This document shows positions 11,131 to 32,000 of a DNA stretch of 32,000 bases, in pieces (the stretch's first letter is position 1; each line of letters opens with the position of its first letter). The notes beneath the pieces were generated by a model. That model had not been told where the DNA came from, did no database searches, and saw only the letters and a list, made by a program, of their open reading frames with translations. The DNA comes from Candidatus Harpocratesius repetitus (GTDB taxonomy: Archaea > Asgardarchaeota > Lokiarchaeia > Sigyniarchaeales > Promethearchaeaceae): NCBI GenBank assembly GCA_021498095.1, contig JAIZWK010000001.1:150001-182000 (forward strand), written 5' to 3'. The position numbers and the translations under genes were made by a program.

Positions 11131-12534
11131 ATGAAAATTCAAACCCTCTTTTATTCTTATGATTGTTACTTATCAAAAAATGAGAAAAATACGCTAAATT
11201 CTCAAAAAACAGCAGTATCAGATTCTTTTCAAAGCTTTTTTTTCCAAAACTATAACATCTTTATAGAAACTAGAAAAATCCCAAAAAAGCACCAATTTAT
11301 CTTATTTTTAACAAAACCTATGTCTTTATCAGATATCAAAACAACATACTGCAATCAAAACACTAATTTTTCATTCTCATTAATTTGGTGGAATGAACCT
11401 GATCCTGATTTAGTTCTATTTTATGAAACACTTTTTTCTCAAACATTTCCATTAAAATTAATAAAAATTCAATTCCGAGAAAAATATACGTCATTTAGAA
11501 AAAATAGGGCGGATTATTACAAATTCAAAGAGAAAATCGCTTTTATTTCAAATTTGAAATCAGATCTCGCTATTAAATATAAAAACAATAAAAATTCAAT
11601 TAATAATTCATCTGATTGGAATAAAAGAGACATAAAAAAATTAAAAGAATTAAATAAGTCGAAAAACTCAAAAGAACTAAATAAGTCGAAAAACTCAAAA
11701 GAATCAGCTAATTCAACAGAAACAAAGGCTCAAACTCAAATTAAAATAAAAGATTGTCAAAAGAAAATAACAATCTATTGCAAAACACCATTTTTCGGCT
11801 CAATCTCGAAAGAATTATCTGCTTTTTTTATTGGTTTAGATGAATCAAATGGAAATATCAACAGAGAAAATCTAAAAAAGCGTTTTCTGGCATTAAAAAA
11901 TTTCATAATTACCTTATTACATAATTCTGTAGATAATTTTAATCGCCTATTTCCAGAATACTTTAATGAATTTCAAAATAAAAGTAATAATGATTTAAAT
12001 CTACGTAATTTTGATACTGCCAATTCTCTTAAAATTTTTATAATTTTTGAAAAATGGTGGGAACAAGTAGTAAAAGAAACAAATCACACAGCGTATGATT
12101 TGATCAATTCACAAATTTCAATAAATTCAGGAAATTCAACAGACCAAGCAAGTCAGATAAACCAAACAAATCCAACAAATCTAACAAATCAAACAAATCC
12201 AACAAATCAAACAAATCCAACAAATCTAACAAACCAAACAAATCCAATAAATCGAAAAAATTTACAAATTTCAGCAGTTTCAACAAATTTAAAACAATCT
12301 CAGTTTTTTAAAAAATCATTAACAATTTATCCCAATTTTTCATATTGGAAATTTAATTTGGAACTTCCATTAAATATTTTTAACGGTTTTCCACAACTTT
12401 TAGATTACTTGCTTGATATTGCGGCATTTCAAATCCCTTTACAAAAACCTTCACAATATGGAAATGCAATTATAGGAATTACAGAAGTATCGAAATTATT
12501 TTCAAATGAAAAGCAAATTTCACAAAGATCTTAA
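11131..12534 (+). CDS. Divergent Cas6-like protein with low-complexity insertions and a degenerate Gly loop
   Basis: Between the effector operon and cas4; ITIYCKTPF resembles the second-RRM strand; C-terminal LLDYLLDIAAFQIPLQKPSQYGNA aligns with the LL..A...GhG.....GhG segment but has lost most Gly. Confidence 0.55.
   Translation: MKIQTLFYSYDCYLSKNEKNTLNSQKTAVSDSFQSFFFQNYNIFIETRKIPKKHQFILFLTKPMSLSDIKTTYCNQNTNFSFSLIWWNEPDPDLVLFYETLFSQTFPLKLIKIQFREKYTSFRKNRADYYKFKEKIAFISNLKSDLAIKYKNNKNSINNSSDWNKRDIKKLKELNKSKNSKELNKSKNSKESANSTETKAQTQIKIKDCQKKITIYCKTPFFGSISKELSAFFIGLDESNGNINRENLKKRFLALKNFIITLLHNSVDNFNRLFPEYFNEFQNKSNNDLNLRNFDTANSLKIFIIFEKWWEQVVKETNHTAYDLINSQISINSGNSTDQASQINQTNPTNLTNQTNPTNQTNPTNLTNQTNPINRKNLQISAVSTNLKQSQFFKKSLTIYPNFSYWKFNLELPLNIFNGFPQLLDYLLDIAAFQIPLQKPSQYGNAIIGITEVSKLFSNEKQISQRS
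11643..11705 (+). repeat. 27-nt in-frame tandem repeat (KELNKSKNS x2 plus partial)
   Basis: aaaagaa(t/c)taaataagtcgaaaaactc at 11643 and 11670, partial copy at 11697. Confidence 0.9.
12160..12252 (+). repeat. 9-nt in-frame tandem repeat, about 10 units (NQT/NPT/NLT)
   Basis: Read directly; encodes NQTNPTNLTNQTNPTNQTNPTNLTNQTNPIN. Confidence 0.9.
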
Positions 12535-12638
12535 AATATTAAGGATCTGAGATATTTTTTATTTTGTTCATTAACATTTAGGTCCCATTTTATTGACCTT
12601 TTTTTCATCTCAGCTTTCAAATATTTTAGCTCTCTCAA

Positions 12639-13325
12639 ATGATAATGAAAATGTCAAAAATAATGGATGATTGGTTCCCATTAGAGCCATTAAACAAAAA
12701 GAAAAATGGGGAATGGTTTTTCTCAGCAGATGAATTACGACAATATTTTTACTGCCCCAGAATTCCATTTTATAGAATTGTCCGTAAATTAAAAACAAAT
12801 CAAACAGCAATAATGCGTAGAGGTAAAGTATTTCATGAAAAAATTGTTCATAAACGCAAAAAACTTGAAAAATGGCTTAAAATTAATGAAAAAAACCAAG
12901 AAAAAAACATGTATTACTTCAATCTTTATTTAGAATCTCCATCATTGCACCTGCTTGCCTACTTAGACTTGGTTGAAAAGGAAAAAGATTCAAATGAAAT
13001 ATATCCAGTCGAATTAAAAACTGTGTCAGAACTCCCTAAAAATAATATATTTTTAGTAAAAGGTCATTTAATTCAACTCACTGTACATTCACTCCTTTTA
13101 GAAGAACATTTTAACACTTTTATCTCCAAAGCAAAATTAATCTATATATCTAATGAAAAAGTAAAATCTTTTTGGCAGGAAATCACAATTGACATGAAGA
13201 AGGTTGTTCTGAAAACGGTGAATAAGATGCATAAAAGTATAATTTCGGAAGATATTCCCGCTCCAATCAAAAATCTGAATAAGTGCAGAGTTTGTGATTT
13301 CAGACGCATTTGTAAAATAATTTAG
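12639..13325 (+). CDS. cas4: Cas4 RecB-like Fe-S nuclease
   Basis: QYFYCPR, GKVFHE, YLDLVE, PVELK, QLTVH, C-terminal CRVCDFRRIC (four-Cys cluster). Confidence 0.9.
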   Translation: MIMKMSKIMDDWFPLEPLNKKKNGEWFFSADELRQYFYCPRIPFYRIVRKLKTNQTAIMRRGKVFHEKIVHKRKKLEKWLKINEKNQEKNMYYFNLYLESPSLHLLAYLDLVEKEKDSNEIYPVELKTVSELPKNNIFLVKGHLIQLTVHSLLLEEHFNTFISKAKLIYISNEKVKSFWQEITIDMKKVVLKTVNKMHKSIISEDIPAPIKNLNKCRVCDFRRICKII

Positions 13326-13383
13326 ATTTTTTCAATTTTCATTTATCTATTTCAAAAAATAAATATGTGGTTAATTTTGCTAA

Positions 13384-30278: not shown

Positions 30279-30296
30279 AAGTGCGTTGAATTTTCC

Positions 30297-30388
30297 AAAA
30301 AAGAGAAGAAAGTCAAAAAGCAAAGAAGGAAAAAAAGAGAAGAAGGTTAAAAAGCAAAAAAGGAAAAAAAGAGAAGAAGGATAAAAAG
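30297..30388 (+). repeat. Intergenic purine-rich 34-nt tandem repeat, about 2.7 copies
   Basis: gagaagaa recurs at 30303, 30337 and 30371. Confidence 0.8.
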
Positions 30389-30413
30389 AGAACCTAATCG
30401 AAGTGCTTAAAAT

Positions 30414-32000
30414 ATGAATTACTTAGTTACTTTTGATATTCCCGTGGAGAATACTCGATTGCGAACAAAATTGGGGGAGAAATGCATGGATTACGGACTT
30501 TTTCGCATTCAATTATCTGTTTTTTGGGGGAGTTTAGAGAAAGCCGCTTTACAGGATTTAATGTTTGAATGTGAAGAGTTAATTGATAATTCACCTGCAG
30601 ATATAAGGTTTTTTGCCGTTTGTGATCAATGTTTAGAGAAGTCGTATGTGATAGCGAATAATTCTCAAATTCGAACTTTGCAAGCAAAAAAGTTAAGCGA
30701 GAATATAAAACTGACAACACTTTCGCACATTGATGTTGGATGGATAGAGAAATCTAAAGATTCACAGAAAAAGAAGAAATCGAAAAAGAAAAAATCGAAA
30801 AAGAAAGAGAGTTCAGAAAATCAAGAAAATATAGTCAATCAAGAAAGCGTTGTCAATCAAGAAAGTGCAATTAATCAAAAATCAGATAAAAAAGTAGAAA
30901 TCAGAGAAACGACAATAAATGGAACAGAAAAAGCGATAAATGAAACAGAAAAAGCAATAATTGAAGGATTAACGAAAGAACAGAGCAAAATAGCAAAAGT
31001 AACAGCCAAACCCGAGCCATTAATGAAGGAAAAGAAAAGAGGGAAATTGGATAATGGAATAGAAAAAAACGTTTTAGAATTATTCGATTTATCAGATGAT
31101 AAAGTTTGGAAGCAGTTTCAGTCAGAATTTTTAGAGCCTTCAATGATAGATGAGAATGAATTAAAACAAGGCGATAATTTAAAGAAATCAACTGATATAG
31201 AAAAGTTACGAGAGATAGAAAAAATAAATGGAAAAATTCATGAAATAAAAAAAGAAAAAGAAGAAATTCATAAAACAGGAAAGGAAAGAGAGAAAATACA
31301 TAAAACAGGAAAGGAAAGAGAGAAAATACAGAATATAGAAAAAGAAAGAGAAAATATACATGAGAAAGGAAGCGAAAGATTTGATGACACAGACTCAATT
31401 GAAGGAGGAATAAAGGAAGAAAAGAGAGATAATATCAACAACGATATTCTAAACAATGCGCTTAGTACTTTTTTGAGAGAGAGCCTTCAAGATGCAATTA
31501 AATTTTGTATTTTTTCTGAAAGTCAGTTTGATTATGAACAAACACATAAACCTGAAATTTCAAAAGAAATGTTATTAGAAAAACAAAAAGAGAAGTTAAG
31601 ACAAGATAAAAAGGAAGATTCAAGAGATTTATCAGAACCAGCAGATACACAACAAACACAACAAACACAACATACACAACATACACAACAATTAAAAGAC
31701 ATATCAGGCACCAAAATAGAAAAAGAAAAGGAAAACGATATAGAGCAGAATAGTATTAGTGAAAACAAAAGGGAAAGCTTTTTAGAAGAGTCAGATTTAG
31801 GAAGGATCCTTAGTTTAGGAGATGATTTGCAGCAGAAAGAATCAGTTCCGTTTTTTATGACGAAAGAATTAATGAAATGGTTGCAAACTGGAGAAGGAAA
31901 TGAATTAGTTGATGAATCGGAATCATTTCCCATAATTGAGAAAGATTTTATTGAGAAAGTTTTGTCTGAATCTGAAAAATATGTGCAAATGGACAAGAAT
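30414..32000 (+). CDS. cas2: Cas2 fused to a >430-aa low-complexity C-terminal extension (partial; runs off the right edge)
   Basis: MNYLVTFDIPVENTRLRTKLGEKCMDYGLFRIQLSVFWGSL...DIRFFAVCDQCLEK is canonical Cas2 (YDI-like, RIQ.SVF.G). Manually translated frame stays open for 529 codons to position 32000. Confidence 0.92.
   Translation, partial: MNYLVTFDIPVENTRLRTKLGEKCMDYGLFRIQLSVFWGSLEKAALQDLMFECEELIDNSPADIRFFAVCDQCLEKSYVIANNSQIRTLQAKKLSENIKLTTLSHIDVGWIEKSKDSQKKKKSKKKKSKKKESSENQENIVNQESVVNQESAINQKSDKKVEIRETTINGTEKAINETEKAIIEGLTKEQSKIAKVTAKPEPLMKEKKRGKLDNGIEKNVLELFDLSDDKVWKQFQSEFLEPSMIDENELKQGDNLKKSTDIEKLREIEKINGKIHEIKKEKEEIHKTGKEREKIHKTGKEREKIQNIEKERENIHEKGSERFDDTDSIEGGIKEEKRDNINNDILNNALSTFLRESLQDAIKFCIFSESQFDYEQTHKPEISKEMLLEKQKEKLRQDKKEDSRDLSEPADTQQTQQTQHTQHTQQLKDISGTKIEKEKENDIEQNSISENKRESFLEESDLGRILSLGDDLQQKESVPFFMTKELMKWLQTGEGNELVDESESFPIIEKDFIEKVLSESEKYVQMDKN
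31266..31379 (+). repeat. 30-nt in-frame repeat (IHKTGKEREK x2 plus 2 degenerate copies)
   Basis: Read directly. Confidence 0.85.
31647..31691 (+). repeat. 9-nt in-frame repeat (TQQ/TQH x5)
   Basis: acacaacaa/acacaacat units. Confidence 0.88.

Follow-up and report, generated by a model that had tools for sequence, protein, structure and literature searches.

In-frame tandem repeats concentrated in a CRISPR adaptation operon of a Lokiarchaeial chromosome

Few CRISPR proteins are as compact and conserved as Cas1 and Cas2. Why, then, are the genes encoding them laden with tandem repeats in a 32,000-nucleotide (nt) stretch of the chromosome of Candidatus Harpocratesius repetitus? This stretch, hereafter the window (G000:C1:150001-182000, where G000 is this genome, a single contig of 4.36 Mb and 31% GC), contains a large CRISPR array adjoined by a gene for a 950-amino acid (aa) Cys-rich protein that we call X, followed by cas1 and cas2. 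An initial annotation, made from the letters of the window alone, had noted in-frame tandem repeats in X, cas1, cas2 and a 467-aa orphan gene but not in the type III effector genes, and had considered a local process filtered for frame preservation, selection for disordered arms and aberrant Cas1 activity as possible causes. Here, we report that a conserved five-gene operon comprising X, cas1, cas2, cas4 and a gene for a beta-CASP-like nuclease is the densest tandem-repeat spot of this Asgard chromosome, and we weigh the explanations for it.

Density and frame of the tandem repeats

Arrays were called using Tandem Repeats Finder (TRF), with a score cut-off of 50, in the window and in the whole 4.36-Mb genome. 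As can be seen in Table 1, every one of the in-frame repeats noticed earlier in the 467-aa gene, X, cas1 and cas2 was recovered, all of them in frame, and the translations of the in-gene arrays of the window display the corresponding peptide repeats. In the X gene, tandem repeat amounts to 34% of the sequence. The intergenic 34-nt repeat downstream of cas1 was recovered as well (93% match over 30297-30388), together with a second intergenic one between X and cas1. The hot spot extends past the window into the gene for a 772-aa beta-CASP-like protein, which has four arrays, while the operon's own cas4, the second of G000, has none. In the effector genes, there is no TRF array with a score of at least 50, merely two-copy rows scoring 34-42.

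In the whole genome, TRF finds 737 merged arrays, or 0.17 per kb. When a 6.3-kb frame is slid along the chromosome, the frame starting at window position 26001 contains 16 arrays, which is the genome maximum, compared to a mean of 1.05 and a runner-up of 8. Among 3284 crude open reading frames (ORFs) of at least 100 aa, X and cas2 rank first and second, with six arrays each, and the 772-aa gene ranks fourth with four; the remaining top-ranked ORFs carry long-period domain repeats, as in large repeat proteins. Altogether, the six module genes (10.5 kb) have 19 short-unit arrays versus 1.1 expected from the in-gene density (P ~2e-17), and in-frame repeats are thus far from equally dense in ordinary genes across the genome. 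The effector genes have 0 arrays versus 0.96 expected (P = 0.38). The adaptation module is the outlier, with the effector genes at the ordinary genome baseline, which means that the contrast originally drawn between the two holds as far as the effector genes have no arrays, but not as a peculiarity of theirs since zero is the genome norm.

Composition accounts for little of the repeat density. The top decile of purine or A content has 0.22 arrays per kb versus ~0.09, a ~2-fold rise. When counts are scaled to low-complexity residues, 17 arrays are found in the four large module genes versus ~2.1 expected. With length, purine content, A content and low-complexity fraction as predictors, Poisson regression gives an expectation of 2.6 arrays in the six genes (P ~5e-11), and three of the four strongest residual outliers genome-wide are module genes.

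Unit length reveals a filter for reading frame. The unit is divisible by 3 in all 19 in-gene module arrays, but in only 2 of the 9 arrays found in the intergenic spacers of the operon in three genomes (units of 36, 34, 26, 24, 34, 20, 10, 86 and 17 nt), a small sample in which some spacers may be former coding tails. The proposal of a local repeat excess filtered for frame is borne out by these counts. The same filter is seen in the whole genome, where the unit is a multiple of 3 in 83% of in-gene arrays versus 27% of those outside genes.

The genomic background on which this hot spot stands is itself substantial, since 337 of the 3284 ORFs (~10%) have an array and some 360 in-gene arrays lie outside the operon. 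The Lokiarchaeial family to which G000 belongs also includes two complete genomes (4.32 and 6.04 Mb), and the density of short-unit arrays, 0.165 per kb in G000, is 0.09 and 0.045 in two complete genomes of this family, as measured in 400-kb samples of G011 and G010. The module arrays are only somewhat longer than background arrays and have a similar period (21 versus 19 nt), match (85 versus 83%) and A content of the coding strand (59 versus 50%). Since they resemble arrays elsewhere in the genome, no special process is required to produce them.

Conserved cores and predicted disordered regions

The five-gene operon X-Cas1-long Cas2-Cas4-beta-CASP-like nuclease recurs in four Lokiarchaeial lineages, the other three being represented by the loci L011, L013 and L014 (Table 1). 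These syntenic modules are repeat-dense too, with other units and lengths. In L011, which comes from genome GCA_054039255.1, repeat density matches that of the window and the repeats end at the operon's end, module specificity in the relatives being judged solely from the genes flanking the module in L011. Alignments reveal collinear cores, with low-complexity inserts between the same core blocks, differing in unit and length. For example, the array after the CLDC motif of X has a unit of 36 nt in G000, 60 nt in L011 and 30 nt in L014. The cas4 of the L011 operon has an extra N-terminal 15/45-nt repeat, which is not in that of G000. L013 and L014 have shorter versions of all module proteins than G000 and L011. 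The orthologue comparison that had been suggested thus finds inserts often at matching positions. A genome search with Cas10 found no close orthologue in 40 relatives, and metagenome and genome contigs searched with the close Cas1 yielded only distant Cas1 genes. Short-read contigs from the source sample match the flanks, break at the repeats and show no copy-number polymorphism.

Cas1 matches Pfam PF01867 over both domains (E = 3.7e-71), and its catalytic residues E332, H397, D409 and E412 are intact, and invariant in 40 sequences. This core is interrupted by a K/E/N-rich insert of ~150 aa (residues ~165-320, nt ~29247-29714), which includes the cas1 array. A search with the C-terminal domain of Cas1 uncovered a graded series of relatives, from type I-D Cas1d of 333 aa (~41% identity) through proteins of 339-342 aa (46-48%), 357 and 363 aa (59%), 386 aa (65%), 391 aa (82%) and 448 aa (93%), to the 507 aa of G000. 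In the same search, the nearest Cas1 in public data is annotated as Candidatus Harpocratesius sp. All the length difference in the series falls at one site, past a long helix ending at residue ~164 and ahead of the LMGYEG helix that holds the first catalytic Glu. The sequences inserted there are unrelated, being K/E-rich in the 507-aa protein, N/Q-rich in the 448-aa protein and P/S/Q-rich in the 391-aa protein. In a GC-richer order-level relative (L005/L010, G014:C91), this position is occupied by a ~100-aa insert that is acidic/Ser/Pro-rich and non-repetitive, and the site is therefore recurrently permissive irrespective of how repeats behave. The insert is almost missing in another family member. 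In an AlphaFold2 model built from a 40-sequence alignment, the Cas1 core has a predicted local distance difference test (pLDDT) score above 90, and residues 165-320 score 32-59 and are mostly coil. The insert is thus predicted to be disordered. This series, from 333 to 507 aa, is a natural one for studying the birth and upkeep of disordered regions.

Cas2 matches Pfam PF09827 over residues 1-76 (E = 4.6e-15), and D8, an Asp in the first strand, is invariant in five sequences. The ferredoxin-like core, which ends at residue ~112, is followed by a tail of ~470 aa containing six in-frame arrays and a poly-Lys patch; a basic patch is found after the core in four of five lineages. Short conserved helical islands punctuate the tail, and its final 12 residues barely differ among the three complete orthologues. 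AlphaFold2, run here with five sequences only, gives a pLDDT of 60-84 for the core and below 50 for the tail, which is predicted to be disordered apart from isolated helices that coincide with the conserved islands. When a Cas1 dimer was modelled together with the conserved tail of Cas2, the predicted complex had a score of 0.00, which we counted neither for nor against an interaction. Cas1 would thus tolerate a predicted disordered insert of ~150 residues beside its active site, and Cas2 bears a 470-residue tail.

X has an invariant Cys cluster at residues ~229-279 and a conserved C-terminal motif, and its orthologues of 948 aa (L011) and 711 aa (L014) lie at syntenic loci. It has no match in Pfam, NCBIfam, PADLOC, a PDB profile search or the protein atlas. 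The C terminus of the 772-aa protein matches the beta-CASP-type exonuclease model TIGR04122 (E = 2.6e-12, which is under the model's cut-off). The operon singles out these two proteins as candidate partners in spacer acquisition, hitherto unstudied.

Purifying selection acts on the cores. For the G000-L011 pair, the ratio of non-synonymous to synonymous substitution rates (dN/dS, with dS ~1) is 0.05 for Cas1, 0.05 for Cas4, 0.12 for Cas2, 0.20 for the nuclease and 0.23 for X. These low values and the intact frames indicate that the module genes are functional, and pseudogenization of the module was rejected on the same grounds. The repeat units, on the other hand, evolve nearly neutrally, with a pooled ratio of non-synonymous to synonymous polymorphism (pN/pS) between neighboring units of 0.71 (25 synonymous and 84 non-synonymous changes), a value resting on small counts and non-independent comparisons. 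Near neutrality fits a constraint on length or composition only as well as it fits no constraint at all. The arrays are also young. Units are 93-97% identical in the best arrays, far above the ~60% identity of third codon positions in the cores of G000 and L011, and the arrays therefore arose, or were homogenized, long after the two lineages split.

Explanations for the hot spot

On balance, we lean towards slippage-type birth and death of repeats, with disordered linkers as the permissive places of concentration and with frame and fold as filters. The proteins of the operon, the 467-aa orphan less so, would combine conserved folded cores with long disordered linkers or tails at permissive sites. 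A-rich codon strings would undergo slippage-type tandem duplication across the whole genome, at a level raised in this lineage, and in the operon short arrays would continually be created and deleted. In genes, the survivors would be the frame-preserving events that spare folds, and in the operon spacers they could have any unit length. Linker sequence would drift almost freely, and old repeats would leave behind low-complexity DNA seeding new ones, with slots that stay filled as their content is replaced, which would give a module-wide hot spot travelling with the operon. The parts that we infer are the slippage mechanism, the self-seeding, and the tolerance, or mild selection, for linker presence behind the concentration.

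Four observations sit uneasily with this scenario. A ~7-fold excess is left after correction for composition and low complexity, so permissive linkers alone are not a quantitative account, and many G000 proteins are equally low-complexity without any array. The spacers of the operon hold 9 arrays in 2.5 kb (3 in 865 bp in G000, 5 in 1327 bp in L011 and 1 in 299 bp in L013), compared to a non-genic average of ~0.48 per kb. Since these spacers are also repeat-rich, protein-level selection cannot explain them, and their richness points to a sequence- or locus-driven component, or some local mutational bias. Last, 11 of 17 G000 arrays overlap an L011 array in the alignment, with 7.9 expected from random placement (P = 0.08-0.10 in a permutation test). 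Apart from the single Cas1 site, the coincidence of array slots between G000 and L011 is suggestive. As the probable cause of the 7- to 17-fold concentration, we prefer tolerance with self-seeding over selected tethers and over an intrinsic mutator.

That disordered arms are themselves selected is possible, if improbable. Charged flexible linkers and docking islands would tether X, Cas1, Cas2, Cas4 and the nuclease, or condense the assembly on DNA, and tandem repeats would merely be the cheapest means of tuning arm length. Such selection would make sense of an insert at the Cas1 site in every close relative, including the ~100-aa non-repetitive one of the GC-richer relative, and of the Cas2 tail, in which islands and a near-invariant C terminus are kept across three lineages, as well as of the basic patch behind the Cas2 core in four of five lineages. 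The module proteins also co-vary in length, long in G000 and L011 and short in L013 and L014. However, the units themselves are near neutral, the nearest Cas1d relatives (333 aa) work without an insert, and the non-coding spacers of the operon, which encode no arm, are equally repeat-rich.

This last feature, with spacer units free of frame, and the excess not accounted for by composition speak for a mutator intrinsic to the module. Operon DNA would be nicked or stalled more often, and repair or restart would multiply short repeats, either through a cis action of Cas1, Cas4 or the beta-CASP nuclease made by coupled transcription-translation, or through R-loops on a purine-rich transcript. The coding strand is indeed purine-rich (with repeats masked, Cas2 ranks 24th and Cas1 147th of the 3284 ORFs), and the hot spot stops at the operon borders in G000 and L011 and follows the operon across lineages. 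Against this, the repeats are like those elsewhere in the genome, the G000 cas4 is free of them, repeat density follows purine or A content only weakly across the genome, the intergenic arrays form a small sample of 9 and our literature search yielded no known precedent. We therefore consider a local mutator unlikely. It is similarly doubtful that the hot spot is self-inflicted by the operon's products or its purine-rich transcript, or that the ever-changing arms, with their few conserved docking islands, are under selection for assembling or condensing a five-protein machine for spacer capture, a kind hitherto undescribed in CRISPR. Either of these, if true, would add a new principle to CRISPR adaptation; otherwise, the operon offers a clean example of a neutral repeat ratchet.

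There is very little room for the view that nothing local is going on, the repeats reflecting a lineage-wide mutational trait or a module decaying under relaxed selection. It could invoke the 10% of ORFs that have an array and a genome baseline 2-4 times that of two relatives, but the 17-fold excess over the in-gene baseline and the module's place as the genome maximum contradict the former, and intact frames, retained catalytic residues and a core dN/dS of 0.05-0.23 contradict the latter. Least credible of all is aberrant Cas1-Cas2 integration generating repeats via target duplication, in spite of genes that adjoin the leader end of a 152-repeat array and three units of 34-36 nt, close to the 37-nt CRISPR repeat, since the expected ~37-nt duplication around an unrelated insert of ~38 nt (period ~75) was not found in the module, where whole units of 9-81 nt unlike the CRISPR repeat are repeated 2-14 times, and since 75-nt periods outside CRISPR arrays correspond to 25-residue protein repeats only. 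The genes concerned (Table 1) had been candidates for stray spacer integrations and were rejected since they encode 25-residue repeats with an FNQDI-x-WDVS-like motif.

Relation to known systems and layout of the locus

The initial annotation had put this locus forward as a candidate for an undescribed system. What we find is instead a property of the adaptation operon of a known system. As in canonical Cas1-Cas2 modules, the nearest annotated one being type I-D (Cas1d, ~41%), the Cas1 fold and catalytic residues and the Cas2 core with its Asp are intact, and cas1, cas2 and cas4 follow each other in an operon adjoining the leader end of an array. In contrast to these modules, Cas1 has a predicted disordered insert of ~150 aa just ahead of the helix that bears the first catalytic Glu, a predicted disordered tail brings Cas2 to about six times its normal length, and the operon includes two additional conserved genes, for the Cys-rich X and the beta-CASP-like nuclease. 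Our literature search found no report of repeat-laden or disordered inserts in Cas1 or Cas2, nor of this five-gene operon. The genus Harpocratesius was named after its repeat content, in a paper with no mention of a repeat-laden Cas1 or Cas2 or of the five-gene operon (PMC8813620).

The closest parallel is with the amino acid tandem repeats (aaTRs) of Borgs, the extrachromosomal elements of Methanoperedens, in which ORF units are always divisible by 3 and intergenic ones mostly are not (Schoelmerich et al., PLoS Biol 2023, PMC9879509). Borg aaTRs are A-enriched, young, different between close relatives, often several per ORF, and mostly encode disordered products; they are also perfect, element-wide and virtually absent from the host chromosome, they favor extracellular and membrane proteins, and they have been argued to be under strong selection for perfection (PMC9879509). 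The likeness that had been proposed stands for the frame filter, the A-richness (a median of 59% A on the coding strand), the several arrays per ORF, the turnover, youth and disorder. It does not extend to perfection, spread, protein classes or inferred selection. When the criterion for Borg aaTRs is applied (no mismatch, at least three units and at least 50 nt), the module arrays appear imperfect, with TRF matches of 69-97% (median 85%). They lie on a chromosome, show a 17-fold concentration in a single operon for cytoplasmic CRISPR adaptation proteins, and consist of units with near-neutral drift (pN/pS 0.71). Giant extrachromosomal elements are thus not the only setting for in-frame repeat dynamics like those of Borgs.

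Two other systems invite comparison. In bacterial simple-sequence contingency loci, repeat slippage in genes shifts the frame, which switches expression on and off by phase variation. The module shares with them slippage-prone repeats inside genes and fast change in copy number, but every in-gene unit preserves the frame and just the length and content of linkers change. Off-target integration by Cas1-Cas2, which generates "neo-CRISPR" units, leaves a repeat-length duplication flanking a spacer-length foreign insert. Both cases involve local duplication near or by the adaptation machinery, but this defining footprint was not found in the module.

The coordinates of the features are listed in Table 1. 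The stop codon of cas2 lies 171 nt past the window's end, and is followed, in order, by the second cas4, the 772-aa protein, a PIN protein, a 361-aa ORF, Cas6 and an AAA_14 ATPase. There are consequently cas4 genes on both sides of the array and adaptation operon. Upstream of the window are a type III-B module, another array and a type I module. The 467-aa ORF is likely a real gene because its frame is uninterrupted over 467 codons in DNA of 25% GC. Its product was originally labelled Cas6-like, which our searches do not support: it has no match in Pfam, NCBIfam, PADLOC, a PDB profile search or the protein atlas, and no homologue among 1.84 billion representative proteins, while the real Cas6 (PF10040) is encoded 8.6 kb past the window's end.

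Table 1. Features of the window and of related loci. Positions without a prefix are those of the window.
Feature	Position	Strand	Description
Effector genes (eight)	1114-10339	+	type III (III-D-like): HD-domain Cas10, Csx10/Cas5-like, RAMPs
156-aa ORF			between effector genes and 467-aa gene
467-aa orphan gene	11131-12534	+	two in-frame arrays; between type III effector operon and a cas4
467-aa gene array	11635-11704		27 nt x2.6
467-aa gene array	12144-12261		9/27 nt x10.8/4.3; peptide TNQ/TNP/TNL x ~11
cas4	12639-13325
CRISPR array	13384-24745	-	152 repeats of 37 nt
Putative leader-side intergenic region	24746-25667		newest array end to Cys-rich gene, from position of degenerate repeat
X	25668-28520	+	950-aa Cys-rich protein, six in-frame arrays
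X array	26104-26247		36 nt x3.7
X array	26587-26861		81 nt x3.4
X array	27063-27111		9 nt x5.4
X array	27346-27519		36 nt x4.8
X array	27597-27668		24 nt x3.0
X array	27958-28214		18 nt x14.3
Intergenic repeat, X/cas1 gap	28554-28624	+	36 nt x2.0
cas1	28755-30278	+	507 aa, TTG start, PF01867
cas1 array	29321-29560		60/24/12 nt
Intergenic repeat, cas1/cas2 gap	30297-30392	+	34 nt x2.7 (17 nt x5.6); unit not multiple of 3
cas2	30414-32000, on to G000:C1:182171	+	585 aa, PF09827
cas2 array	30767-30806		15 nt
cas2 array	30819-30878		18 nt
cas2 array	30905-30965		21 nt
cas2 array	31232-31379		30 nt
cas2 array	31647-31691		9 nt
cas2 array	31935-31963		15 nt
Second cas4	L001:349-1044
Cas6	L001:6625-7620		PF10040
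Five-gene operon, G000	window 25668-32000 and L001:349-3682
Five-gene operon, L011	L011:4478-15446		X 948, Cas1 448, Cas2 738, Cas4 261, nuclease 814 aa
Five-gene operon, L013	L013:1-6214		X partial, Cas1 391, Cas2 401, Cas4 249, nuclease 612 aa
Five-gene operon, L014	L014:827-4909		X 711, Cas1 386 aa, Cas2 partial
Gene with 75-nt-period protein repeats	G000:C1:1059015-1061096
Gene with 75-nt-period protein repeats	G000:C1:787426-789564
Gene with 75-nt-period protein repeats	G000:C1:3131380-3132441
Gene with 75-nt-period protein repeats	G000:C1:379532-380160

As for the CRISPR array next to the adaptation operon, its spacers are 36-40 nt long, with a mode of 38. The repeat at 13384 is the sole variant among the 152, the remaining ones being identical, and this single degenerate repeat at the low end places the trailer there and the leader at the high end, adjoining X. 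The reverse strand of the 37-nt repeat terminates in ATTGAAAT, and the minus strand is probably the one that yields the CRISPR RNAs of this array. The ORFs listed within the array are spurious. A small extra CRISPR array is present at G000:C1:125023-125436, with a repeat one base off that of the window and identical to the repeat of the L011 locus.

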